This document shows, piece after piece, positions 1 to 21,636 of a stretch of DNA of 24,020 bases. Origin of the DNA: an uncultured Fusobacteriales bacterium (lineage in GTDB: Bacteria > Fusobacteriota > Fusobacteriia > Fusobacteriales > JAAYPW01); the NCBI GenBank assembly GCA_964506865.1, contig CAZDNU010000264.1, positions 1 to 24,020 on the forward strand, read 5' to 3'. A program made the translations under genes and the position numbers. The notes beneath the pieces are model-generated. The model searched no databases. It was not told the DNA's origin and was given only the letters and a program-made list of their open reading frames with translations. Each line of letters starts with the position of its first letter. Within the stretch, counting starts at the first letter, position 1.

Positions 1-3000
1 ATTATCTTTATCAGCTTTTACCAAAGTAACATAATGTTCTAAGTCAAACATTCCACTATCACCATTAGGATGACCTAGAGGTAATCCACTGATAATATCA
101 TTTGTAATTACACCACTTAAACCTTCATGCGTTAATACATCATAGTCTAAAAGATCAAATTCATGTATATCACCATTACTGTCTACATTGTCAGATAGTT
201 TAGCTCTTAAGATTAATGCAGCAATTTCTTCTGCATCTTTATCTCCATTAGCTGCATCTTCAAGAATATCCAGAAAATCTTTCTTAGATATTGAGTCTAT
301 ATTTTTATCGATTTTACTCTCTACTTGATTATCGATCTTATTCCTGCTATCTTCAGAGAGTTCTACAACAGCAGAATATTTGTATTCTTCCTCTAAGTTG
401 TATATGGTAGAAGTCTTAATAGCTGTATATGACTCTGTTTCTTTATCATATTTGATTATATCAGCATAATGATCTGTAAGATGATCTGTCAGATTTTTTT
501 TATATTTATCAAGAGCTCCTGCCTCACCATTTTGTTTTGCAGCATAATAGGCTCTTAATCCTGTATTCTGTGCATTAGTAATAGCATTAATCTGAGAAGT
601 AAGATCACTAATAATCTTTTTCTGTATTTTCTCTTTCTTAGTGTTATAATCTATACCTTGATAATCACTGGTAACTTCACTAAACATCTCTTCGTAATTA
701 TCACGTTGATAGATTAAATCCTGCTTAAGTGCTTCCATTTGAGTACTTAGTTCATCAACTGATAAATTTTTCCCTTTATTCAATAAGTTCATAACCAGTG
801 CAGGAGCCATTTTATCTGTTTGAATAGTGTTTGTATCACCAATCTTTACTTCGTGATAAGAGTACAGCTCTATAGAATCACGGATACCTTCATCATATTC
901 TAATTTTTCTCCTTCTTTAGATATAACCGTAAATTCTTCATATACTACTGTTTTAGTACCAAGTTCTGGATGCTCTTCTGAAATATTTTCTGTTTCTGTT
1001 CTAGTTGTAGCGAAGACAGAATCTCCTTCCATTGAAACCATTACCTTCATATTATTATCAGAAGCATCTAGGTCTGTAGTATTAAATACAGCTCCTTTAA
1101 TATCTATAAAATTACCAACTTTTTCATGTTCAAGACTGATTTGTAATACTTTACCATTTTCATCTTCACCAATTATTCCGGTATTTATATCTTCTTCGAA
1201 AGTACCCATCTCAACAATATTATCTAACATCTTTTCTTTGAAGTATTGAGTCTCTTCATAAGTTAAAGCTTCTCCTGTAACTATTTTTTTAGCAATAGCC
1301 ACTTCTTTACTACCTTCATTTTCCCATGATTTTACAAATTCATCTTTTACAAAACGTATTTGATCCCAGTCATTGATTAATGCATCTACATTTATTATAC
1401 CTCCTGCAGTAACATTGTTATATGCTCGTAGATCTTTTACTACATTATTTATTGTTGCTTGGTCTACATTACCTTGAGTATATATATTTTTCCAATTTCC
1501 AATCTCTTTTAATATATCAGCAACCTTATCTTCATCACTTAATGTTTTTACTTTCTTATGTACATTAAGCCCTTCGGATACTAATTGAGTAATATATTTT
1601 ACATCTGTAAAATCTGTTCTCACATGATGACCATCTTTTGGATTATAGTTATTTTGCCATAGATTAAATCCGTTATATGACTCTGCTTGATATTGTGATG
1701 TAGCATCAGAAACAAATGCTGTTCCTGACGCATTATGCTCATGCCTGCTAATATCATACACATATCCTACTTTTGCTCCAACATTAAAGTCAAGATATTC
1801 TGCATTTTCCTTATACTTTGCATCGGTTTTATCTGTATTAGCTTTAAACTTATACTGCGTTGCAAAGTCCATTCCAACAGCATTATAATAATCATCTGCC
1901 TTATCACCATATACATAATTTACTCCTGCAGTATTTATATATTTATCATTCTCATTTACTAACCAATTAACATCAGCTGCAACTTCTCGTCCACCATAAG
2001 TAACTGAAGCATTATTTGGCATCCAAGATGCATTACTGGAATTTGTTTCATATGTTAGTGATATACTAGAAGTTTCTCTTATGTTGGTCCAAGAGAATCC
2101 TTCCGATCTATCTATCATAAAATTAATATTTCCACCAAATCCCACAGTAGGGTCATATCCTGCTTCCAGACCAACCCCTCCTTTAGAAGTATCAAATACT
2201 AAACTACCGTACATAGAACTATTTCCAAAATCTTTTGAAAGTCTTAATTCACCTGCTGAATCAATTTTAAGTTTCATACCTTTATACTGTATTCCTCCTG
2301 CAACTGTTAGATCTCCACTGTCTAAGTTGTAGTTAAAACCTCCACCAACGTATTTGCTTACATTTGCAGAAGCTCCAACTGACTGTATAAACTGTCCTTC
2401 GGTACTTAATCCAATACTAAGATTCATAGTTTCATTTGCAAAAGGGAGAGGTATATTAAATTGTGCATTACCCATATCGATTAACTCTACAGTGGAAATA
2501 GCTGCATCTATTGCAGCAAACTTTAGTGTTGCCAGGAAAACATCTGCTGCTCCGGGAACTACAAACATAGAAGCAATAGATACTGCCGCATGAAGAGCTC
2601 CATACATTTTTTTCTTTTTTTCCAGTTTATTTTTTACTCTTACCAGATGATTAGACAGATTATCTAGTCTTAATTGTAAACCTTCATTTCTGCTATATTC
2701 CAACTCTTCTAATAAGTTGTCATATTCTGTTTGTAATCTATTTACTTCATTATTAATAAGGTCCACACTATTTTTTTCATCAAACATAAGAGCAAGACTT
2801 TTTAGATATAATCTGTAGTCTGCTTCTGTCATATCGTCAGCTGTAAGTTCATAGTTATTACTATTATTGATTGTATACAAGTAATTTTGTATCCAATCAT
2901 TATCAATAGGGAATACAGTCTTATTAATATTATCTATCTGTATGTTCTGATTGCTCTTGACTATACTGAAAAGACATACTATCCCTGATTCTGTACTAGT

Positions 3001-6000
3001 TGTTTTACCTGATCCTGTATTTATGGTTATAGCTGTTTCTGTACTACCCTCTATTAATCCTGTCATTACTTCACTTTGACCGTATTGGAAACTAGCTGTT
3101 TGTTTTGCTGGTTCAAATGAAGCTGATATACTATCTATAACAAAGAATCTACCTCTTACTCTTACTGGTGCCGGACGAATTGTCTTTTTATATGTAATAT
3201 CATACCAAAGAGAATAGTTAGCACCAGGAGGAGAGCCATATTGCTGACCGTCTGAACTATTAAAATCTTCTTCTCCTCTAATTAATACTGTACCTCCGGG
3301 TACATCTATCTCTATAGTTTTTCCTAGTGGATAAGGAAGTTGTGAAAGCTCTATAGGTCGGTAATTCTCTATTACTAGGTCTTTCCCATAAGCTGCGTTA
3401 TCGTTTTCCACTATTTTTTTCAAGAATATAGGGACATCTTCACCTTTTTTATTCTTTACAGTTCTGTAAATAGGGAATACTTTGGATATTTCATCTTTAG
3501 CATCTTGATCTCTATTATCTTTACTATTGTAATTATAAATTGCAACCTCATCATCGCCTACTTTTTCTACATCAATAATAGAACTACCGTCATAACTTAT
3601 CTTTGGTATAGGTATGGCATCATTATGGAATGTAAGGGTAGTCATACCAAAGTTTACTTCTGAATTATATAGATCTTGATACTCTGTAGCAAACTCTGTT
3701 GTAGACTTTTCATCAAAATCATATAGTGAATTCATTGTACTGTTAAATTCAGCTATATATGTAGGTGCTGTTTTTGCATCATAAAATTGTTCTTGGTTAT
3801 AGTCAGCAGTACCCTCTATTTTAAATAGATTTTCTTTGCTTCCTGTATTTCTATTTAAAGTAAGCTCGATCTCTTTTACCTTGTATGTTACCAGGGCATT
3901 TTCTATACCACTACCACAGAAATTCTCGTCACTATTACTATCTGCATCTATATCCAGTTGTTTCAAGAAATAGTTTTTAGCATAAGTATTAGCATTAACT
4001 ATATCATCTCGTGATGGGTTTAATATACCTGATCTTTTAGCCTTATCACTTGTGTATGATATATTTGGACTAGTCTCTTTTATATCCAGCTTTACTACTT
4101 GATGTATTGTCTCTACACCATTTACACTCGTCTTATATACTAACTTAGCATTATCTACAAAGTTTTCTATTCTATTGTAGTCAATGGCTCCACCTGTAAT
4201 ATCATCTGCTTCCAATTCCATTAATTCCACAAGATGAAACTTACTGTATCTTGCAGGAATATGTACTCTATTTAAGATTATATCTTTTGTAATAGATGTT
4301 TCTATATCCCAATTTGTATATACCGCAGCACTTGAAGTATATGTTCCGTTTTTAGTAGGTATATTTTGTAGCTCTATAATATACTTAGCATTTTCATCAT
4401 CTACATATGGAAAATATGACTCTGTATCAAGTGTAAGTGCTACATAGTTAAATCCAATACGTTTTAGTTCAAAACTATCTATCTTCTCCAGTGTTTTATT
4501 TACTATAGCAGGGAAATCGTCTCTTTGTACTACTACAAATCCATTCCTTGCATAAACTCCTTCACTAATAGAGTAATCAAACTCCTTTCTGGTATACAAG
4601 CTTAAATCAAATTTAGCATTATTACCATCTATTCTATCTAATTTCAAATCTCTGTTATAGTAATAACCATCTTGTACTGCCAAAGCATTATTCAATGCTT
4701 CAAAGGCTGTAGCTCCAGTAGGACTATCATATATATACTTGATATTTTCATCTGTAATATTAAGTTTTAATTTTAGATTTGAATATATTCCAGCAGGGTT
4801 ATCTTCTTTATTATAAGTAGATATATTTACTTTAGCATTAAAGTTAGACATAGCTTCTATAGGTCCTTGTTCCAAAACTATCTCTTCATCTACTATTCCT
4901 AATGCTCCTTCTGGTTGTAGTACAAATGAATTTACCTCTTTTTTCAGCTTAAAGAATATATCTTGTATCTCTCCTGCTACAGTTTGATATATTACCGCAC
5001 CCATAGTTGTAGGCTCAGAATTTAAATATTGGAAATTAAAATCCTCTTTTACAGTAATCTGTATACCTGATAGAGTATCAGTAAGCTTAATATTTGGTTC
5101 TATAGCAATGTATATATTTTTTTCTCCGCCTCCATCTTCACCATAGATAGAGTTAATATAGTTTCTATTCTCTTCCTCTTTAAATAAAGGGATCTCTACA
5201 AAGGTAGCCATAGGGCAGGCACTAAAATTTCTTCTTGAATAATTACTGATTAATCTACCAACAGATCCTTCAAATAGTACGCTGTCATCTGTATATATAG
5301 TTATCTTATCTTCATTATCATATCTGTCATAATTAACATATTGATCAAAGAAAGCTTGTGTAGAGCTTTGCGTCTCTAAGAAGTTTCCTTCTGATATACC
5401 GCTAAGTAAGTCTCTCGAATTAAAAGCTATTCTCAAGAATTGATTAGTTTCTTTATCCATATTAATTGGATATGTAATTATATTGCTTCCATTATTAGTA
5501 GTGTTATTTTTCATTTCATATTGTGAGAAACTAAGTGTATATCTTGAATTATTGTCTGCAGATAGTGATCTTCTTATAGAATTCACATTTACTATGATTT
5601 GAGGAAAGTTTTCTATCCCGTATACATTTTCATTATCTATATATTTAGTCATAGTATCTTGTATTATTTCCATTTCATCTTTACTTACTGCATCATCTAT
5701 AGATACAATCTCACTTTCGTCATCCACCAGTTCTACATAGTAATCTCTACTACTATATCCTGATATCTCGTCTGTTTCACATGCCAGGGAATAGTTTAAT
5801 ACTATTGTAGAATCATCTTTTAGACTAGGGTATTTTTCTAATGTAGTTTTTAACTTTGCTATCTCTATTACTATATAATAGTATCCATCTTCATCCGGAT
5901 ATATCTTATATAGGGTAGGGCTTCCATTAAAATCAATAAAGTATTCTCGTATACCTTGAGTAACAATACCGCCTTGTTCACCGTAAAATATAGAAAAATC

Positions 6001-9000
6001 AGATATTAATACGTTCTTTAAAGCTTTGTCATTATATTTATCTACTTTTATTTTGATATATTGTGTTTCATCTGTTTTTACAAGCTTAATTTTTTCATTG
6101 TCTATATCTCCACTTGGACTAGGCAAGATAATATCTGATGCAAAGTCAGTGGCAATCTGTTTATATATTCCAAAGATACGAATAGGGGAGTCAAAGTGAC
6201 TACTTACAGCACTTTCTACTTCCATATAATTATCCTGGAAATATTTACTTGTATTATTAAATTGATATTTTTGATTTATATCATTTTGTATTGCTTCTAT
6301 TATATTACTATCTGATACTTCATGGAACTGGTTTGTCACACCATCCATATTACCTGTATCTGTTTTCATACTGATAAAGTCTATATCTGTAACTTCTCCA
6401 TTTGTAAATTGGAACGGCATAATCTTTGTCTTTCCATCATTGGAGAAAGTATATGTTGGTGCAGGATTATCTTCATCAATATATGTTGTTCCCGGTAATA
6501 CACCATAAAATCCATCACTATCTTTAAACATAGGTATCGATAGGGGAATAATCTTATCAAGCAACTTAAATGGTTTTATTATTTCACTTCCATCTTCTTG
6601 TATCTGTTTGGCTATACCATAATATATTATTTGACTACCATAATCAAATGCACTATTTATCTCTACATCATCACATGGCAAGTTATTTAAGAATACTAAT
6701 TCTTTAAATTGTGTCTCTATAGCTTGGTAATTTTCTGTAGCTTCATCTTCAAAATTATGTTTTAGATTGAGTAGAGTGATTTTTGAATAGAAAGCTTTTT
6801 CAGGATCACCTTTCACTATTTCTGATACATTATTGTATGCTTCATTAGACTGGTTTGCATAGAATTTTTCTACTTCCAAAGCTTCTTGTACACTTGATAG
6901 GGGATTTTGATTCTCTATCTTATCAATATTTTCTATTTCAGATGCAATTGCTTTGGCTATTCTTGCAAAATTAATAGCTGTTTCTGCTGTAAGGGCATTT
7001 TGTCTTGCTGTTTCCAATCTATCTTTATAGTCTTGTAGTAGTTTATAGTAATTAGTTTGTGTATATAGATTAAAGTTAGCTTCTCTTGTCTCTTTATTTG
7101 GGTTTACAAAGTTTACAGAATACCCATATTTTGAAATATATTTCTTAGAAGAGTGAGCTATTATATCTACTAAGTTGATCATAGAAGTATTATTTTCATA
7201 AGCTCCTTCAGTTGCCTTCATTGATATCACTTTTGCAATATCTTCCATAATATTTTCTTTAGCTTTCTCTAAATTTATTTGAGGGTTCTCTTCTATGTAT
7301 ATCTCTTCCAGTACTCCTTCGCTATTTTTTTTATAAAAATAGAATTCAATCTCAAATTGAGGTATTATACCAACAGTGCTTTCTGCTTCCGGGGTCAGAC
7401 TTTTAAAGTTTACCTCATTACATTGATATACCACATATTCTTCTAGTGAATTACCCATACTATCTGTAAGAGGGATTTTACCTTTAATATATGTTTTGGC
7501 ATCATCCAGCAATACTATTCTTGTTTCTGTAAACTCTTTGCTGACTATATTGCTATCATCATGTATTAGGGTAGGTTTTGAATTTACTAACACAGATGGT
7601 ATCAATGCATTATTTAATGTTTCTTCCGAATCATCTATTAAGTCTAATACTTGTCGAGTATTTATATCTATTCCTATTATTTTTTTATAGAATGTATACC
7701 TATCACCAAAGTAGGGAATAGTATCTTGACCTACTGTATATTGTGATAAGTCATTCATAACAAATAGGGTATTTGGTAACTTAGTAAGACCTTTTTCTAT
7801 TGTGTTTAATGCTGTATACTCATCTGTTTGATTATCTCTTGCATGTAAACTTACTTTATTAAAGTCAAATATCTTATATCCTCTTAATGGTCCTGCTTTT
7901 TCGGTAATATAGAATTTCTTACACTCTTCCGGTATTATATCAAAACCACGATTGGCATCTGCTTTTTTCCAATGAGTATTTAGTTTTTCTGCATTATTAA
8001 AGATGTTAACAGATATACCATCAAATTTTGTAGAAGATAAGTTTTCTAATTTGTCAATATTTTCTTTTTTTGATACAGAGGGCATAATTGTATAAAATAT
8101 TTCTTCAGGGGTTTTTTCTATATATTCATCCATTGGCATTGTGTATACAAGGGCGCTATCAGTAGTAGCTGTACTTTTATCACTATATTCACTTCGTAAG
8201 CTTAAATTTAATAATGGCTCTCCAGGACCTATAGTTTGTTTTTCTAAATGTGAGTAAAATCTAATTTCAGCATTATCTTGAGTGTACCATATCCAATTAT
8301 CACCAAAGTATTCATCATATATTGATTGATTGCTATGTACTAAATCTTTAGATGAATCTATATTATTATTAAATTCTTTTTCCAGTATTTTTTGAAAGTC
8401 TTCATAATTAGCACTATTCACTTTGTTTAAATGGAAATTAGTTCTAATGCTAAAATCTATATCATATTTTTTACCTGGTATCATAGCACCTATTTTACTT
8501 ACTTTTAGATAATCGGCTAAAATATTTGGTAGGTAACATTCATTTAAAGTAGTATTTCTAATATCTATCTCCACGTCATAATCAAATATTAGATCATATG
8601 TTTTATTTACAACGTTTCGAAATTTATTTTTATATTCAAAGACAACATCATTGGCTCCATTTTTACTAAATGCTGTTCTTTCTATATTACTGTATGAGAT
8701 TCGATCCCATTGGTTTTTATCTTCTTGTGTTATAGTAGGCGGTTCAAATAGCTTTGTAGCCATATCACTTTGCTCTATAGTAGTAATATATAACGTATCA
8801 CTACTATATTCATCGGTACTATTCAAGGCATAGATACCGTAAGTATATGGATTATTGTAGCCAATAGGGGCTACAAATATATTTTGATTTGAAACAATTT
8901 CTTCTGTTTCTTCCAGTACATCATCCAAAGTTTTTTCTTCTTCGTCAGATATATTTCCTTGATCTTTTTCTACATTTATTGAAGGATTAGAACAAATTTT

Positions 9001-11088
9001 TGTTATGCTTTGAGCAAATTTTAATAAGTCCTTTGTTTTTCCTACTACTTCACCTAATAATTCACCATCTATTACTTCTATATATTTATTTAATAGCCTT
9101 TTTACTATAGGCTCTGCTTGTAAATTATATTGCTCTCTTATCTCATTAGAGTTATATCCAAAAGCAGCAGCTGAACCTGGTATTGTCTTGTTAATGTAAG
9201 AATTTAAATTGTTTGGCAATTTTGCTAATACGTGACTCTTTAAATTTATCCCTAACATACTAGGATTATTATAAATTAAATCTTCTGGCTCTTCTATATC
9301 TAGCGAATTTGGATCTTTTGAGTTGTATTGCTGTATTAAGGATAAAGCATTTACAAATTCATTATCTGTATTTGGTATATACACGTTTACTTCCAACTCT
9401 TCTATATTTGTATAAAAGAATTCTCTATTCATTTTTTGTAAATTAATTGTTTTATATATCGGTGCTATTCCATCTTCCTCTTTTATAAAAGTAAAAGTTG
9501 TATTGCCAGGACGAATAATATTATCTTGATTTTTATCCAAAACTAATCGATAACCTTCTAATTTAGCAGGGTTTCCGTTAATCAAAAAATCTGTTATATA
9601 TATTGTCTTATTTTCCGTCCCTTTGCCTACTACATCAAATACTACATTTTCAGGTATTCCTATAAAGTCTAAATTTACTATTATAAGTGGATAGTTTTTA
9701 AATCTTGTAAGATTATACATATTTTGTTTTGTTTCATATAAAAGGGTTTTGCTATTTTCAACAGGATAATTAATTTTTGATTTATTCATGCTTTCATTAT
9801 ATTCTATTAAAGTAGGAAAGATAAAGCATCTATTATCATCTAAACTTGAATTGAATTTACCATTAATTTTTTTGTCTGTATTTTTCAAATATACATCTGT
9901 ATTTCTAGTTTCTAATAAATCTTGTCTATGATTCATTATCAAGCTTTTTTCAGCCATATCAATTTCACGGCCATTTTGATGAAGGGCTACATCTCCTGTA
10001 CTTATAGTTAATATCTTTGAACCAGGATCATAACTAGCCTTATATCCATGATAATAACTTTTTCTTAAGACATAGATATCAGATATAATATTATCAAATA
10101 TATCTTCCATATCATCTATTAGTTTTTTTGTATCACCATAATTTTTTAGTGCTACATCTTCAATATATAGCTTCGTTACTTCATCCTGAGCAGACGAGAT
10201 ATATTGTCCTGTTACTTCAGATACTGAGAATTTTTCTGCTTTAAATTCATATGGAACATCTAATTCTTTAAAATATTCTCCCAAAAACTTAGTAGCATTA
10301 TGATTTACAAAGTTTATATCAAATATAAAATCTGTATAGTTTATTGTATTTGGATAATATGGAGTTCCATTAGGAGAATGCAGTAGAGAACTATAATCAT
10401 ATGCAGATACAGAATTTTGAGTATATTGTACCTCTAATTTTACATTTTCAGGGTTAAAAGTCCTTATTTCACTACTTTTTACAGGATTTTCTATATTACC
10501 TTTTATGTATAGCAAATTATCTTTTGCTTCCAACTCTTTTACAAATAGTAAAGTTTGTTTTTGTTCTCCTTGATGGTTTTTTATCTCGAAACTTTTCATT
10601 TTTGCATGTTCCAATGCTAAAGCAAGATTAAAAACCATATGTGTTGTATCTTGTAATTGGGGTAGGGCAAGCGAATCTATCCCCAAAGGCAGTTTAGCAA
10701 AGTTATTTTGAGAATATTTATTTAGCCCTATACTGTCATACGGACTTAAATATCTTGTATAGTATTCTCCCATAGTATCTGATGCATATTTTTCATCTCT
10801 ATCTTCATGTAATATTAGACTGGTACTTTCTTTTATATCAAACTCTAATTTCTTTTTCAAAAAGTAATCAAAGAATACCTTATATTCATTTTGACCTGTC
10901 CAATCATCTATTACCAAGTTATGAAATCTATCAGGGTTATTTACATCATTTCCTACAGCAGAAATATATTGATTTATATAGTAATCACTGCCCGGATTGT
11001 CCATATAGTCGCTTGGATTAAGTGAATCACTTGCCAAATTTATTACGCTTATTATTGTTAATAGGATCAAGATTAATAGTTTTTTCAT
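1..11088 (-). CDS. Giant secreted protein, at least 3,696 aa, C-terminus runs off the left edge; unknown function, polymorphic-toxin/adhesin-like architecture
   Basis: Manual translation shows no stop codon from ATG 11088 to position 1. N-terminus MKKLLILILLTIISVINLA-SDSL is a Sec signal peptide. SD AAGGAG at 11102-11097 lies 8 nt upstream, and the start overlaps the upstream stop (ATGA). The translation is protein-like throughout. Absent from the supplied ORF track. Confidence 0.95.
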   Translation of the reverse strand, partial: MKKLLILILLTIISVINLASDSLNPSDYMDNPGSDYYINQYISAVGNDVNNPDRFHNLVIDDWTGQNEYKVFFDYFLKKKLEFDIKESTSLILHEDRDEKYASDTMGEYYTRYLSPYDSIGLNKYSQNNFAKLPLGIDSLALPQLQDTTHMVFNLALALEHAKMKSFEIKNHQGEQKQTLLFVKELEAKDNLLYIKGNIENPVKSSEIRTFNPENVKLEVQYTQNSVSAYDYSSLLHSPNGTPYYPNTINYTDFIFDINFVNHNATKFLGEYFKELDVPYEFKAEKFSVSEVTGQYISSAQDEVTKLYIEDVALKNYGDTKKLIDDMEDIFDNIISDIYVLRKSYYHGYKASYDPGSKILTISTGDVALHQNGREIDMAEKSLIMNHRQDLLETRNTDVYLKNTDKKINGKFNSSLDDNRCFIFPTLIEYNESMNKSKINYPVENSKTLLYETKQNMYNLTRFKNYPLIIVNLDFIGIPENVVFDVVGKGTENKTIYITDFLINGNPAKLEGYRLVLDKNQDNIIRPGNTTFTFIKEEDGIAPIYKTINLQKMNREFFYTNIEELEVNVYIPNTDNEFVNALSLIQQYNSKDPNSLDIEEPEDLIYNNPSMLGINLKSHVLAKLPNNLNSYINKTIPGSAAAFGYNSNEIREQYNLQAEPIVKRLLNKYIEVIDGELLGEVVGKTKDLLKFAQSITKICSNPSINVEKDQGNISDEEEKTLDDVLEETEEIVSNQNIFVAPIGYNNPYTYGIYALNSTDEYSSDTLYITTIEQSDMATKLFEPPTITQEDKNQWDRISYSNIERTAFSKNGANDVVFEYKNKFRNVVNKTYDLIFDYDVEIDIRNTTLNECYLPNILADYLKVSKIGAMIPGKKYDIDFSIRTNFHLNKVNSANYEDFQKILEKEFNNNIDSSKDLVHSNQSIYDEYFGDNWIWYTQDNAEIRFYSHLEKQTIGPGEPLLNLSLRSEYSDKSTATTDSALVYTMPMDEYIEKTPEEIFYTIMPSVSKKENIDKLENLSSTKFDGISVNIFNNAEKLNTHWKKADANRGFDIIPEECKKFYITEKAGPLRGYKIFDFNKVSLHARDNQTDEYTALNTIEKGLTKLPNTLFVMNDLSQYTVGQDTIPYFGDRYTFYKKIIGIDINTRQVLDLIDDSEETLNNALIPSVLVNSKPTLIHDDSNIVSKEFTETRIVLLDDAKTYIKGKIPLTDSMGNSLEEYVVYQCNEVNFKSLTPEAESTVGIIPQFEIEFYFYKKNSEGVLEEIYIEENPQINLEKAKENIMEDIAKVISMKATEGAYENNTSMINLVDIIAHSSKKYISKYGYSVNFVNPNKETREANFNLYTQTNYYKLLQDYKDRLETARQNALTAETAINFARIAKAIASEIENIDKIENQNPLSSVQEALEVEKFYANQSNEAYNNVSEIVKGDPEKAFYSKITLLNLKHNFEDEATENYQAIETQFKELVFLNNLPCDDVEINSAFDYGSQIIYYGIAKQIQEDGSEIIKPFKLLDKIIPLSIPMFKDSDGFYGVLPGTTYIDEDNPAPTYTFSNDGKTKIMPFQFTNGEVTDIDFISMKTDTGNMDGVTNQFHEVSDSNIIEAIQNDINQKYQFNNTSKYFQDNYMEVESAVSSHFDSPIRIFGIYKQIATDFASDIILPSPSGDIDNEKIKLVKTDETQYIKIKVDKYNDKALKNVLISDFSIFYGEQGGIVTQGIREYFIDFNGSPTLYKIYPDEDGYYYIVIEIAKLKTTLEKYPSLKDDSTIVLNYSLACETDEISGYSSRDYYVELVDDESEIVSIDDAVSKDEMEIIQDTMTKYIDNENVYGIENFPQIIVNVNSIRRSLSADNNSRYTLSFSQYEMKNNTTNNGSNIITYPINMDKETNQFLRIAFNSRDLLSGISEGNFLETQSSTQAFFDQYVNYDRYDNEDKITIYTDDSVLFEGSVGRLISNYSRRNFSACPMATFVEIPLFKEEENRNYINSIYGEDGGGEKNIYIAIEPNIKLTDTLSGIQITVKEDFNFQYLNSEPTTMGAVIYQTVAGEIQDIFFKLKKEVNSFVLQPEGALGIVDEEIVLEQGPIEAMSNFNAKVNISTYNKEDNPAGIYSNLKLKLNITDENIKYIYDSPTGATAFEALNNALAVQDGYYYNRDLKLDRIDGNNAKFDLSLYTRKEFDYSISEGVYARNGFVVVQRDDFPAIVNKTLEKIDSFELKRIGFNYVALTLDTESYFPYVDDENAKYIIELQNIPTKNGTYTSSAAVYTNWDIETSITKDIILNRVHIPARYSKFHLVELMELEADDITGGAIDYNRIENFVDNAKLVYKTSVNGVETIHQVVKLDIKETSPNISYTSDKAKRSGILNPSRDDIVNANTYAKNYFLKQLDIDADSNSDENFCGSGIENALVTYKVKEIELTLNRNTGSKENLFKIEGTADYNQEQFYDAKTAPTYIAEFNSTMNSLYDFDEKSTTEFATEYQDLYNSEVNFGMTTLTFHNDAIPIPKISYDGSSIIDVEKVGDDEVAIYNYNSKDNRDQDAKDEISKVFPIYRTVKNKKGEDVPIFLKKIVENDNAAYGKDLVIENYRPIELSQLPYPLGKTIEIDVPGGTVLIRGEEDFNSSDGQQYGSPPGANYSLWYDITYKKTIRPAPVRVRGRFFVIDSISASFEPAKQTASFQYGQSEVMTGLIEGSTETAITINTGSGKTTSTESGIVCLFSIVKSNQNIQIDNINKTVFPIDNDWIQNYLYTINNSNNYELTADDMTEADYRLYLKSLALMFDEKNSVDLINNEVNRLQTEYDNLLEELEYSRNEGLQLRLDNLSNHLVRVKNKLEKKKKMYGALHAAVSIASMFVVPGAADVFLATLKFAAIDAAISTVELIDMGNAQFNIPLPFANETMNLSIGLSTEGQFIQSVGASANVSKYVGGGFNYNLDSGDLTVAGGIQYKGMKLKIDSAGELRLSKDFGNSSMYGSLVFDTSKGGVGLEAGYDPTVGFGGNINFMIDRSEGFSWTNIRETSSISLTYETNSSNASWMPNNASVTYGGREVAADVNWLVNENDKYINTAGVNYVYGDKADDYYNAVGMDFATQYKFKANTDKTDAKYKENAEYLDFNVGAKVGYVYDISRHEHNASGTAFVSDATSQYQAESYNGFNLWQNNYNPKDGHHVRTDFTDVKYITQLVSEGLNVHKKVKTLSDEDKVADILKEIGNWKNIYTQGNVDQATINNVVKDLRAYNNVTAGGIINVDALINDWDQIRFVKDEFVKSWENEGSKEVAIAKKIVTGEALTYEETQYFKEKMLDNIVEMGTFEEDINTGIIGEDENGKVLQISLEHEKVGNFIDIKGAVFNTTDLDASDNNMKVMVSMEGDSVFATTRTETENISEEHPELGTKTVVYEEFTVISKEGEKLEYDEGIRDSIELYSYHEVKIGDTNTIQTDKMAPALVMNLLNKGKNLSVDELSTQMEALKQDLIYQRDNYEEMFSEVTSDYQGIDYNTKKEKIQKKIISDLTSQINAITNAQNTGLRAYYAAKQNGEAGALDKYKKNLTDHLTDHYADIIKYDKETESYTAIKTSTIYNLEEEYKYSAVVELSEDSRNKIDNQVESKIDKNIDSISKKDFLDILEDAANGDKDAEEIAALILRAKLSDNVDSNGDIHEFDLLDYDVLTHEGLSGVITNDIISGLPLGHPNGDSGMFDLEHYVTLVKADKDN

Positions 11089-11273
11089 TTACTAATCTCC
11101 TTTCCTATTGTAAAGTTAGCAGATACACTTTCATTATATCCAAAACTGCAACTATATCCTGTAGAAGATGAGTATACTGCATTATAGTTTTTAAAATAAT
11201 TTGTAAGTTTTTTCATAATTGAATTATTTTTTTGAACTCTTTTTCTATATTTTCTTAAATTATTTTTATTCAT
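11085..11273 (-). CDS. 62-aa basic small protein of unknown function
   Basis: SD AGGAG (11289-11285) overlaps the upstream gene's TAG, 11 nt from the ATG. Its TGA overlaps the giant gene's ATG, so it is coupled on both sides. Confidence 0.7.
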   Translation of the reverse strand: MNKNNLRKYRKRVQKNNSIMKKLTNYFKNYNAVYSSSTGYSCSFGYNESVSANFTIGKEISK

Positions 11274-13230: not shown

Positions 13231-13875
13231 ATGAATATCTTTCTTTTTAGCATACTTGCTATAATTCTTTTATTTTTATCAATTAAATACATTAATAATA
13301 CTAAAAATATCGAAATGAATTTATCAAAAAAGGTTCAATGGTATGAACTAGTAATACTGTTTTTTATTATCATAATTTTTTTCCTAACACAGGTTGCTAT
13401 AAATTCTTCTATAAATTTTCAAAATAAAGGTTATATTTTATTTTTGTTTCTATTATTTATAAGTTTTATAGATTTAAAACGAAAATATATTCCAGATATT
13501 TTTTCAATTTTACTTATAATTTTTGGAGTATCATATTCAATAATATCAAATCACTTAGAAATAGATCTCAAAAATTCTCTTTTTCTTGCTTTTCCTTCTT
13601 TAATTTTATATTTTTATGGAGATAAACTATTTAAAACTGAGTGCATTGGAGCAGGAGATATAAAATTGATTTTGGGATTAGGATTTTTTTTTACCGATAT
13701 CACAGTTTATGATGTATATATATATTATGCCTTGGCATACCTTATCGCCTTTCCAATTGCCATTTATTTACTTTTCAATCCCAAAAGTAAAAAGTTCATA
13801 CCTTTTGCTCCCTTTTTGTCAATTTCTGCTATCTATTTATACCATTTAAAAGGAGGTTTTTTATATGAAAATTAA
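13231..13875 (+). CDS. Prepilin peptidase, family A24 (GxGD aspartic membrane peptidase), lacking the N-terminal Zn/methyltransferase domain
   Basis: Multiple TM helices. Catalytic motifs FIDLKRKYIPD and GAGDIKL, C-terminal IPFAPFL. No CxxC pairs in the N-terminus. SD GGAG. Confidence 0.88.
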   Translation: MNIFLFSILAIILLFLSIKYINNTKNIEMNLSKKVQWYELVILFFIIIIFFLTQVAINSSINFQNKGYILFLFLLFISFIDLKRKYIPDIFSILLIIFGVSYSIISNHLEIDLKNSLFLAFPSLILYFYGDKLFKTECIGAGDIKLILGLGFFFTDITVYDVYIYYALAYLIAFPIAIYLLFNPKSKKFIPFAPFLSISAIYLYHLKGGFLYEN

Positions 13876-15058
13876 AATATTCATATTTGTTTTCTTACTT
13901 TTTATTTGTGCTTGTAAGAATAATTCAAAATCAAAAGCAAAACTTGTCCCATTACAGTCGACAGAAAAGCAAAATAATATGATTTATATAAAAAAAGGGA
14001 GTTTTGTAAATACACCATTAGAGATTCACCTAGAAGGCTTTTTTATCAGTTCACATATGATAAGCTACAACGAATATTACAAACTCTCCACAAAAAGTGT
14101 TTCATATGATCTTGATAAATCATTTGAAGCAATTAATAATCTCTCCTACTATGATATTGCTCAATTTTGCAACCAGAAAAGCCTAATTGAAAATTTAAGC
14201 CCCTATTACTACTTTAAAGGAAATAAAATATATGAAAATGTCAATAATAACGGATATCGTCTTCCAATAAAAGAAGAGTTTATTTATTTGTTTGATTATA
14301 ACATCAACAGTCTTTATACTACTCATATAGAAAAAAGTAAACTTTTTTTTGATACTATTCCATATTTTAATTTATCAATAAACTTGTTTCCCGATTTTCG
14401 GGGAAATGAGCTATGTAATAATGATTTGATTCAAAATCAAAAAAAATCTTATAATGGTTTTCGTATTGCAAGAAATTCAGATTATCCAAATACAAATGGA
14501 TTACGTTACACTACACGTGAAATTTATAAATTTCCTGAAACCTATGAATATTATAACGTCGATAAATATGGGATCAGTTTTCCATATCCTAAAGATTGGG
14601 GGACAAAGTATATTTATAAAAATTTAAGTATTCATTTTAGCCAAACTGATTTGGAAAAATACGAAAAAGGGATTCCTACTAGAGGAAATGGAGTTGTCTT
14701 CTATAAAGAAATTTATAATACAGATAGATTATATAGTCAAAATTTTTTTATTTATAATAAAGTCAATTTAAAATTGAAAAAATACAATCGAAAAACAAAA
14801 AAATATGAAATAAAAGATAATTTAAGTATCTTGGACTCTTTTTCTAAAAAATTTAATTTAAATTCAGATAATTATAAAATCCTACGGAAAAATGATGCTG
14901 TTTATATCTTCTCTAAAAATACAAATTTATATAAGGTAAATTTCTATATTATAAAAAACAATATTGTTTTTCTCCTTTCATTTGAAACAATTAATTCAAA
15001 AACTAAGATTCCTTTAGAGCTAATTGATTTTGTTTTTAACAATATAGATTTTTATTGA
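13865..15058 (+). CDS. Lipoprotein with a degenerate FGE-sulfatase/SUMF1-like domain plus a C-terminal PsbP/DcrB-like domain
   Basis: Lipobox LFICA-C after a basic and hydrophobic leader. FGE-like motifs MIYIKKGSF, LSYYDIAQFCN..LSPYY, NGYRLP.KEE, GFRIAR. YGISFPYPKDW is typical of PsbP-like folds. SD AAGGAGG; overlaps the upstream gene by 11 bp. Confidence 0.72.
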   Translation: MKIKIFIFVFLLFICACKNNSKSKAKLVPLQSTEKQNNMIYIKKGSFVNTPLEIHLEGFFISSHMISYNEYYKLSTKSVSYDLDKSFEAINNLSYYDIAQFCNQKSLIENLSPYYYFKGNKIYENVNNNGYRLPIKEEFIYLFDYNINSLYTTHIEKSKLFFDTIPYFNLSINLFPDFRGNELCNNDLIQNQKKSYNGFRIARNSDYPNTNGLRYTTREIYKFPETYEYYNVDKYGISFPYPKDWGTKYIYKNLSIHFSQTDLEKYEKGIPTRGNGVVFYKEIYNTDRLYSQNFFIYNKVNLKLKKYNRKTKKYEIKDNLSILDSFSKKFNLNSDNYKILRKNDAVYIFSKNTNLYKVNFYIIKNNIVFLLSFETINSKTKIPLELIDFVFNNIDFY

Positions 15059-19723: not shown

Positions 19724-19755
19724 TAAAGAAAATTAAAATGAAAGGAGTTAAATTA

Positions 19756-21636
19756 ATGACAAAACAAGAATTAATGAGTAAAATGATTTTACCAAAAGAG
19801 CTTGAGGCAGTTTTAAAAAATTCAAATAAAAATATTATAATCCCAGAAAGCAGAGAAGAATTATTTGAAATGGCAACGGGAGGTAAAGATAATGATTTTT
19901 TTGAAGTTGCATATGATGTAGAAGGCAAAGGAAGAGTAGTGGAAGCTACTGTAGCAAAATGTAAAAATGGAGCAGCAGTCAATTACTTGGAAGCATATAT
20001 GAGAAGAAGAGATCCTGAATGTATGAAAATTGCAGATGACTTACCAACTGATAAACCTAAATTCGAAGATACTTATGGTGAAAAATTTGATAGTTTAAGA
20101 GCAGATACTTTTAAGTGGTTCGAAAGTCAAGATTTGATTGTAATGCCATTTATGTCTGGAGGGAAAAAGCTTGGTTACGATTCATTATTAGTAGCTCCGG
20201 CAAATGCTGGGTTCTTTGCAGCTGGGTTAAGCGATCTTCAAGAGTTTATTCCTGCAAGTGAAATCCAAGAAGGATTTAAGCCAAGAGCTATACTTTATCT
20301 TGCACCTACGTTTAGACATACTTATTTCAATGGTAAACAAGCAGTTATACATAATAGATTGGATCAAATGCATGAAGAATTTTGCTACAATCTATATCCA
20401 GGACCAAGTGCAAAAAAAGGAGTATATGGAGTACTTCTAACAATAGGAGAAGAAGAGGGCTGGGTAACTAACCATACATCAGCTGTTCGAATAAAAACTC
20501 CTTACCAAAACACATTAAATATAATGCATGAAGGTGCTAGTGGTGGTGGGAAAAGTGAGATGTTAGAACCAATCCACAAACAGCAAGATGGTAAAATATT
20601 GCTTGGTAAAAATGTTATAACAGGAGAAGAAGAGATAATAGAGTTACAAGAAGAAAGTGAATTGGAACCATTAGCAGACGATATGGCTATGTGTCATCCA
20701 AGTATACAAGATGGAAAGAAAATAGTACTAACAGATGCAGAAGCTGGTTGGTTCTTAAGAATAGATCATATACAACACTATGGAACTGATCCGTATTTAG
20801 AAAGACTTTGTACAGAACCTAAAAAACCATTAATCTTTTTAAATATGGATGGAGTACCTAATTCAACTTGTTTGATATGGGAACATACAATGGATACTCC
20901 TGAAAAAAGATGTCCAAATCCAAGAGTAGTTATGCCAAGAGATCTTATACCAAATATAGTAAATGAGCCTGTAGCTATAGATGTAAGAAGTTTTGGAACT
21001 AGAATGCCGCCTTGTACAAAAGAAAAGCCAACATACGGAGTTATGGGTATGATGCATATAATTCCACCTGCTTTAGCATGGATATGGAGATTAGTCGCTC
21101 CAAGAGGATTTGCTAATCCAAGTATAGTAGATACAGGAGCTATGAGCAGTGAAGGTGTTGGATCATATTGGGCATTTGCTACTGGAAAAATGGTAAAACA
21201 AGCAAATTTACTGTTAGATCAAATTTTAAAAACTCCAGAAACTAGATATATTCTACTTCCAAATCAACATATAGGAAGTTATAAAGTAGGATTTGCTGCT
21301 GAATGGTTGACAAGGGAATACCTATCTAGAAAGGGTGGAGTAAAATTAGAACATGAAAAAGTATCAGCAGCAAGATGTTCATTATTTGGTTATTCGCTAG
21401 ATGCTATGAAATTAGATGGTCACAAAATTAGAAAAGAGTTCTTACATCCTGAGTTGCAGCCAGAAGTAGGAATAGAAGCATATGATAAAGGAGCTTCTAT
21501 TTTAACTAATTTCTTTAAAGAAGAGTTAAAAAAATTCAATACACCAGAATTAGACGAACTAGGACAAAAAATAATAAACTTAGTAATGAATGATGCTCCA
21601 GTTGAGGAATATGAAAAATTAACACCAATGAAATAA
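19756..21636 (+). CDS. DUF4914-family protein with a P-loop-like motif; PEP carboxykinase-like fold suspected
   Basis: Recognised family motifs YMRRRDP, PTDKP, YNLYPGPSAKKGVYG, HEGASGGGKSEM, CPNPRVV, PRGFANPSI. The start is moved from 19738 to ATG 19756 because of the SD AAGGAG. The fold assignment is inference. Confidence 0.82.
   Translation: MTKQELMSKMILPKELEAVLKNSNKNIIIPESREELFEMATGGKDNDFFEVAYDVEGKGRVVEATVAKCKNGAAVNYLEAYMRRRDPECMKIADDLPTDKPKFEDTYGEKFDSLRADTFKWFESQDLIVMPFMSGGKKLGYDSLLVAPANAGFFAAGLSDLQEFIPASEIQEGFKPRAILYLAPTFRHTYFNGKQAVIHNRLDQMHEEFCYNLYPGPSAKKGVYGVLLTIGEEEGWVTNHTSAVRIKTPYQNTLNIMHEGASGGGKSEMLEPIHKQQDGKILLGKNVITGEEEIIELQEESELEPLADDMAMCHPSIQDGKKIVLTDAEAGWFLRIDHIQHYGTDPYLERLCTEPKKPLIFLNMDGVPNSTCLIWEHTMDTPEKRCPNPRVVMPRDLIPNIVNEPVAIDVRSFGTRMPPCTKEKPTYGVMGMMHIIPPALAWIWRLVAPRGFANPSIVDTGAMSSEGVGSYWAFATGKMVKQANLLLDQILKTPETRYILLPNQHIGSYKVGFAAEWLTREYLSRKGGVKLEHEKVSAARCSLFGYSLDAMKLDGHKIRKEFLHPELQPEVGIEAYDKGASILTNFFKEELKKFNTPELDELGQKIINLVMNDAPVEEYEKLTPMK

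Follow-up and report, generated by a model that had tools for sequence, protein, structure and literature searches.

In type Va autotransporters the polypeptide chain runs from a passenger through a helix to a barrel, and in OmpA a barrel is followed by a periplasmic domain. Type Ve proteins (intimin and invasin; PF11924) have an internal barrel with a large C-terminal part after it, and proteins of the OmpM/SlpA type consist of a coiled coil and then a barrel. In the giant adhesin AtaA, a separate periplasmic partner, TpgA, reinforces the anchor (PMC13082670). Here, we describe a giant protein of about 4,000 residues, P0001, encoded on the minus strand of a contig from an uncultured sediment bacterium of the order Fusobacteriales; the window analyzed is the entire contig (24,020 bp), which belongs to a fragmented genome bin. 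About three quarters along the chain, a module of helices and Gly/aromatic strands (residues 2766-3137; window 1678-2793) stands out from the rest of the protein. Our preferred reading, held tentatively and given somewhat less than an even chance, is that the module forms a barrel in the outer membrane, together with a lumen or linker helix, and anchors, perhaps also exports, the N-terminal part of the protein.

P0001 shares with type Va autotransporters, the fusobacterial giants included, a Sec signal, a huge N-terminal part, an Ala/Ser-rich helix and about 270 residues of amphipathic Gly/aromatic strands, and the statistics of its strand faces are within those spanned by 14 barrels of fusobacterial autotransporters. 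It differs from them in the absence of hidden Markov model (HMM) or profile similarity, in the internal position of the candidate barrel and in the presence of two helices joined by Pro-Gly instead of one linker helix. In addition, the only full-length orthologue detected, P0004, ends in GFTLE, that is, not in an aromatic residue, whereas the fusobacterial autotransporters compared all end in Phe. In OmpA and in the AtaA-TpgA pair, a periplasmic part behind the barrel or next to it links the anchor to the envelope, an arrangement that P0001 would share; by contrast, the C-terminal part of P0001, which is placed in the periplasm by analogy, matched neither OmpA_C nor LysM nor any other wall-binding family. 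The internal barrel and the large C-terminal part after it are reminiscent of type Ve. However, PF11924 (IAT_beta) had no match in P0001, in P0004 or anywhere in the host genome, the helix stands before the strands here, and about 2,770 residues would have to stay in the periplasm. With OmpM/SlpA-type proteins the module shares a helical stalk directly N-terminal of the barrel-like region, but it has no SLH domain, the modelled hairpin is intramolecular, and 2,765 residues precede the helices. In the proposed layout, a type Va arrangement (passenger, helix, barrel) runs on into that of OmpA, where a periplasmic domain follows the barrel. The sequence features, their conservation and the diderm host are observed, whereas the fold, topology and export role are inferred.

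The beta region and the helices preceding it

The giant open reading frame (ORF) covers positions 1-11088 of the minus strand, at least 3,696 codons (3,696 residues), and is open at its 3′ end; because it runs past the contig end, about 275 C-terminal residues are absent from the window, as judged against the 3,971 residues of P0004. An independent contig of the Joint Genome Institute (JGI), identical to the giant gene over 9,801 nucleotides, ends even earlier, and no other contig of the assembly was found to contain the missing C-terminus. A contig from one sediment run reaches 434 nucleotides beyond the first base of the window, indicating that the giant gene continues there. The ORF begins with a Sec-type signal peptide read from the sequence (residues 1-20; 11029-11088, minus strand), which has a K-K pair, a hydrophobic core with a Kyte-Doolittle-19 (KD19) value of 2.17, an NLA/SD junction and no lipobox Cys. 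It is followed by an N-terminal part of 2,745 residues (2794-11028, minus strand), in which family scans found no known domain and which is a candidate surface-displayed passenger. Behind the module lies the C-terminal part (residues 3138-3696, incomplete; 1-1677, minus strand), which is rich in Lys and Glu, helical-looking by eye and also without known domain. An internal-repeat search gave no signal in the giant protein. A first-pass annotation, made from the letters alone, had noticed the module at window positions 1680-2780; this corresponds to residues 2770-3137 as it said, and the peptides it quoted all lie on the minus strand where it placed them. Its count of more than 560 residues after the presumed barrel needs revision: 559 are present in the window, the roughly 275 missing ones have to be added, and about 830 follow the module in P0004.

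The Gly/aromatic beta region itself (residues 2868-3137; 1678-2487, minus strand) comprises about 14-17 amphipathic strands of 6-16 residues, mostly separated by Gly turns of 2-6 residues, so that the roughly 260 residues of short strands with Gly turns in the first-pass annotation are confirmed as about 270. Examples are the segments SVGASANVSKY, GGVGLEAGYDP and DFNVGAKVGYVYDI, which begin at residues 2903, 2970 and 3100 (window 1791), respectively. The fraction of Gly reaches 0.20 in the 100-residue window from residue 2893, against a protein-wide mean of 0.051 (standard deviation, SD, 0.028). Compared to the remaining protein, the module is enriched in Gly (10.8 vs 4.7%) and Ala (9.0 vs 4.8%) and depleted in Ile (4.7 vs 9.3%). 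We also calculated dyad coverage, that is, the share of a 270-residue window covered by 10-residue windows of alternating apolar and polar residues with one fully apolar face. Dyad coverage was 0.29 in the module and 0.30 in its orthologue, compared with 0.03 +/- 0.04 (maximum 0.13-0.14) in the other windows, which puts the module some 7 SD higher than the remainder of the protein. It is the sole membrane-like stretch: in the complete P0004, no other 270-residue window, the C-terminus included, exceeded 0.144. On the Gly, KD19 and dyad measures the stretch stands out by more than chance would give, in line with the earlier remark that it is compositionally unlike the rest of the protein.

As positive controls, the 14 barrels of fusobacterial autotransporters gave dyad coverages of 0.13-0.28, and the module lies at or above all of them. 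Helical membrane proteins confounded the dyad rule in its first form; under the stricter rule that replaced it, the module ranks 7th among 1,368 ORFs of the genome. Of the eight other ORFs in the top nine, checked against Pfam, two match porin-like (BBP2) models weakly, one is MipA and two are proteins with a signal peptide but no family. Using a composition trained on autotransporter barrels, the module ranks 3rd among the same ORFs. Within dyad segments, the polar faces of the module consist of 20-24% Gly and 9-12% Lys plus Glu in the two orthologues, and aromatic residues account for 28-37% of the apolar faces. The corresponding ranges are 10-32%, 0-24% and 24-50% for the 14 autotransporter barrels, and 3-16%, 26-29% and 10-23% for non-barrel false positives (CARDB, TamB, SecD and homoserine dehydrogenase); within these segments, what sets the module apart from the false positives also brings it closer to real barrels. 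The strands thus have the statistics of membrane barrels that had been suspected from the letters, being long and dyad-amphipathic, with Gly abundant on the polar face and aromatic residues on the apolar one.

These properties are shared by P0004, which is 39-41% identical to P0001 overall and 47% identical in the beta region. The architecture of the module and many of its Gly residues are kept, the apolar/polar alternation is retained strand by strand, and all four small indels fall outside the long strands. In several strands, the alternation is unbroken over 12-16 residues in both orthologues. Two invariant segments, ..QYKF.. and ..GYVYDI.., resemble a beta-signal, although both lie internally and such patterns are common.

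Ahead of the strands lies a helical hairpin (residues 2766-2823; 2620-2793, minus strand), in which the segment LINNEVNRLQ begins at residue 2777 (window 2760). AlphaFold2, run with a two-sequence alignment, gave two confident helices, 2766-2798 and 2802-2842, with a predicted local distance difference test score (pLDDT) of 74-88, joined at the invariant SRNEG turn (SRNEGLQ in the alignment to P0004). The first-pass annotation had described a coiled coil or heptad helix here; the stretch is indeed helical, but it is modelled as a hairpin and not as one continuous heptad helix. A KKKK patch follows (residues 2824-2827; 2608-2619, minus strand), present as described at residue 2824 (window 2619) but not conserved, since P0004 has KREA. 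The next 40 residues (2828-2867; 2488-2607, minus strand), beginning with MYGALHAAVS, form an Ala/Ser/Gly-rich helix, a P-G-A turn and a second helix; both helices are candidates for a lumen or linker position. Between the orthologues, the P-G-A turn and the motif AAIDAAIS-x-V-x3-DMG are invariant, and a helix at 2847-2862 was also drawn by AlphaFold2, with low confidence. As with the linker of type Va proteins, the predicted helices 2802-2842 and 2847-2862 stand directly ahead of the strands; the helices of the module are amphipathic.

The Ala-rich segment had been taken for a hydrophobic hairpin. An Ala-rich helical pair is present, but its hydrophobicity falls short of that of a transmembrane hairpin. 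Apart from the signal peptide, only windows starting at residues 2834-2842 reach a KD19 of 1.6 in the entire P0001; the segment peaks at 1.82 in P0001 and at 1.32 in P0004 and is broken by Pro-Gly after 16 residues, and an approximate Hessa-type scale gives sums of about +5.6/+6.1 kcal/mol. The unfavorable sums and the drop of KD19 in the orthologue argue that this segment is not a membrane-spanning helix, and its weak hydrophobicity suggests that it should go through Sec and not halt in the inner membrane.

The hairpin is the only confident part of the AlphaFold2 models. Mean pLDDT was 38 for residues 2765-3165 and 35 for residues 2868-3140. These low-confidence models contain 14-19 strands arranged as a meander of long strands with turns of 2-6 residues, including nine consecutive strands across residues 2889-2993.

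Host envelope and proposed route to the surface

The genome bin comprises 2.22 Mb in 530 contigs, with 31% guanine plus cytosine (GC) content and 86% completeness. The genome forms its own family within Fusobacteriales, and its RpoB is 74-80% identical to those of Cetobacterium and other Fusobacteriaceae. Judged by its genes the host is diderm: three Omp85-family matches were found, the best of which is a full-length BamA-type match, and TamB, MipA and porin-like proteins are encoded as well. Both general features of a barrel assembled by the beta-barrel assembly machinery (BAM), a Sec signal in the protein and a BamA in the host, are therefore present. Given a diderm host with BamA and strand statistics like those of autotransporter barrels from related genomes, an outer-membrane barrel is the best reading of the beta region.

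The classical autotransporter domain, PF03797, had no match in P0001 or P0004 at E values up to 1, nor did a search of the host genome and of one genome from each of three small Fusobacteriales families find it. In the two large families of the order, PF03797 autotransporters occur in all 17 genomes searched, with 3-21 per genome. We counted this pattern in favor of the barrel. The first-pass annotation had considered the module a misfit with classical type Va autotransporters, and this holds: besides the lack of a PF03797 match, profile-profile comparison (hhalign) with the 14 fusobacterial barrels and their linkers gave a probability of 0.4%, and the candidate barrel is not C-terminal.

We propose that the chain would cross the inner membrane via Sec, after which residues 2868-3137 would be assembled by BAM as a single-chain barrel of about 12-16 strands in the outer membrane of the cell itself, by analogy with type V secretion. 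The small-residue helical segment (2828-2867) may then occupy the barrel lumen or sit just beneath it, with the helical hairpin (2766-2823) as a stalk ahead of it. By the same analogy, the 2,745-residue N-terminal part could be threaded out and displayed on the surface, and the C-terminal part of about 830 residues could be kept in the periplasm as a tether, comparable to the C-terminal domain of OmpA or to TpgA for AtaA. A stronger version, in which the protein represents an undescribed form of self-export (an "internal-barrel autotransporter" whose barrel exports a fibre of about 2,770 residues while the 830-residue helical tail tethers it in the periplasm and a dedicated, secreted and helical 560-residue partner assists, in a lineage whose searches turned up no classical autotransporter), seems to us unlikely, if worth stating. 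Should the barrel be real, a very large passenger could be anchored or exported by a barrel that is not at the end of the chain, and periplasmic reinforcement, which is a separate protein in AtaA/TpgA, could sit in the same chain. The protein would then add a class to type V secretion, as a new variant of type V-like display, and would offer a handle on surface building in an uncultured branch of Fusobacteriales. If the region is only a soluble domain, it would be an unexplained domain in an orphan giant protein, of limited interest.

Alternative explanations

A soluble domain is nearly as likely as the barrel and must be regarded as a serious possibility. The region would then be a Gly-rich beta-meander (a sandwich, an open sheet or a small up-down barrel) in a secreted or surface fibre, outside any membrane, with its hydrophobic face packed on the Ala-rich helices. 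A number of observations weigh against the membrane barrel, and several of them directly favor this view. No barrel family was detected for the module in Pfam or NCBIfam (E up to 1), a profile search of the Protein Data Bank (PDB) returned nothing below an E value of 0.1, and the hhalign result adds to these negatives. The dyad and composition measures are ad hoc. The stricter dyad rule that selects the module also places the CARDB beta-sandwich lipoprotein, TamB and FHIPEP, none of them a barrel, among its top nine, and lipoproteins and Big-like surface proteins rank beside the module by barrel-trained composition, so that composition alone cannot separate barrels from extracellular beta domains. 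A four-feature filter is passed by 5 of the 1,368 ORFs, with the module at the top, but it was set after the values of the module had been seen and is given no weight; being passed by only 5 of the 14 true autotransporter barrels, it is also insensitive. Both AlphaFold2 runs stayed below a pLDDT of 50 in the beta region and never showed a closed barrel; how many strands there are is uncertain, and several of those predicted are not long enough to cross a membrane. Some 830 residues lie downstream of the candidate barrel, which no classical autotransporter is known to have. Nor is the module, at 47% identity, the most conserved part of the protein (57-63% at residues 1800-2400). Its amphipathic helices could equally form the core of a soluble domain. 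Finally, the host genome encodes one secretin, and a prepilin peptidase gene stands divergently beside the operon; with a secretin present, a soluble Sec-exported protein could leave the cell by a secretin-based or other route. What speaks for the outer-membrane barrel over a soluble domain is that, by the standards of soluble sandwiches, strands alternating without a break over 12-16 residues are long, that the Gly-rich polar face with little Lys or Glu resembles a barrel lumen (polar faces of the genome's other dyad-covered proteins, namely non-barrels, its own porin-like proteins and MipA, contain 18-31% Lys plus Glu), and that the complete P0004 has no other anchor.

The model that follows from the first-pass annotation makes the module a toxin-like translocation device, whose hairpin and strands would enter the membrane of a target cell and carry the C-terminal part across, as has been suggested for the FHA-2 region of CdiA or for delivery domains in large toxins. 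A helical hairpin, a moderately hydrophobic helix pair and beta-strands do make a plausible insertion unit, and a giant secreted protein with a beta-rich stretch before a less conserved C-terminal part is what CdiA, other two-partner or polymorphic toxins and TIGR04388 proteins have in common with P0001. The part behind the module is the least conserved (30-35% identity vs 41% overall), the last 275 residues or so are missing here, and the tail of the orthologue has no match in other contigs. However, we consider this idea improbable. The supposed variable C-terminus is variable only in the sense of low conservation; it is not swapped, as its 560 residues are collinear between P0001 and P0004. 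Neither orthologue has a recognizable toxin domain or any feature of the polymorphic-toxin layout that had been suggested: no Pfam match was obtained for a two-partner secretion (TPS) domain, filamentous haemagglutinin (FHA) repeats or RTX/Rhs families, and VENN motifs, RTX GGxGxD motifs, YD repeats and the DPxGL motif were not found. TIGR04388, a model named Lepto_longest with which the first-pass annotation had compared the layout, matched neither in the NCBIfam scan (E up to 1) nor in the genome search. The gene upstream does not encode a TpsB, and in P0004 the Lys patch is absent and the hairpin is only weakly hydrophobic. Far less probable still is an inner-membrane stop-transfer anchor, which would leave the N-terminal part in the periplasm and everything after residue 2850 in the cytoplasm. 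The segment is the sole one besides the signal peptide with KD19 above 1.6, but the Pro-Gly break, the low KD19 in the orthologue and the Hessa-type sums disfavor insertion. Moreover, the basic patch would be on the already exported side, contrary to the positive-inside rule, and is not conserved, and the cytoplasm would be an unusual place for a Gly/aromatic beta region.

Orthologues, distribution and neighboring genes

P0004 (3,971 residues, with a stop codon) is encoded on a 12-kb Logan contig with 25% GC and is the single full-length orthologue recovered from 5.8 billion clustered proteins together with 1.84 billion representatives read exhaustively by HMMER. Its contig, like that of the window, ends at the giant gene. 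The two proteins are most similar at residues 1800-2400 (window 3889-5688, minus strand), with a peak of 68% in the window from residue 1882; no known domain was recognized in this region, which probably forms the functional core of the N-terminal part. A third locus, L114 (an NCBI assembly with 24.5% GC), encodes the N-terminal 1,118 residues of another homologue, 42% identical. The giant-protein family is essentially orphan, with three loci, all from uncultured low-GC bacteria. No further relative was found by word-indexed search at near and shorter lengths, exhaustive HMMER, back-translated scans of genome and metagenome contigs or an invariant-motif DNA pattern in genome and metagenome collections, nor among 40 relatives or in plasmids and phages. 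A profile search of 190 Fusobacteriota species genomes gave two weak matches to the helical part only, which were taken as chance. P0001 had no Pfam or NCBIfam match, and P0004 no match in a PDB sequence search, at E values up to 1; an ESM Atlas feature search gave no usable match for the module or the C-terminal part, and a PHROGs search nothing meaningful.

Fragmentary contigs 90-99% identical to the window were detected in aquatic and sediment metagenomes of other studies, and contigs from three metagenome runs, one each, extend beyond the ends of the window. In one sediment run, positions 2590-2981 (residues 2703-2832) showed 2.3% divergence from the window compared with about 9% in neighboring pieces, as seen in a small sample of single low-depth contigs.

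Directly upstream of the giant gene and in the same direction lies the gene for P0002 (11288-12970, minus strand), a secreted protein of 560 residues that is helical-looking by eye and belongs to no family. Its sole relative, P0005 (L114:1356-3038), is 48% identical and likewise lies directly upstream of the giant gene at L114. As the partner is upstream at both loci with upstream DNA, the pair is conserved wherever such DNA is available. P0002 matched no Pfam family and neither POTRA nor Omp85, and hence is not a TpsB; an ESM Atlas search yielded sub-threshold leads only. P0002 is a candidate dedicated chaperone or anchor partner of the giant protein.

Between the two genes, a 62-residue ORF (11085-11273, minus strand) overlaps the ATG of the giant gene and was called as a gene by JGI. 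At L114 the two large genes are 12 nucleotides apart without this ORF, which is thus not conserved and may not be a gene. On the other side of P0002, the divergent prepilin peptidase gene (Peptidase_A24) and a 397-residue lipoprotein-like ORF without family (13231-15058, plus strand) adjoin the operon, and the same pair is present in two other contigs carrying an identical partner protein. Farther along the window, the nearest relatives of a DUF4914 protein of 632 residues (19738-21636, plus strand) belong to Clostridia and Cellulomonas-type Actinomycetes (53-62% identity) and not to Fusobacteriota; this protein is patchily distributed.

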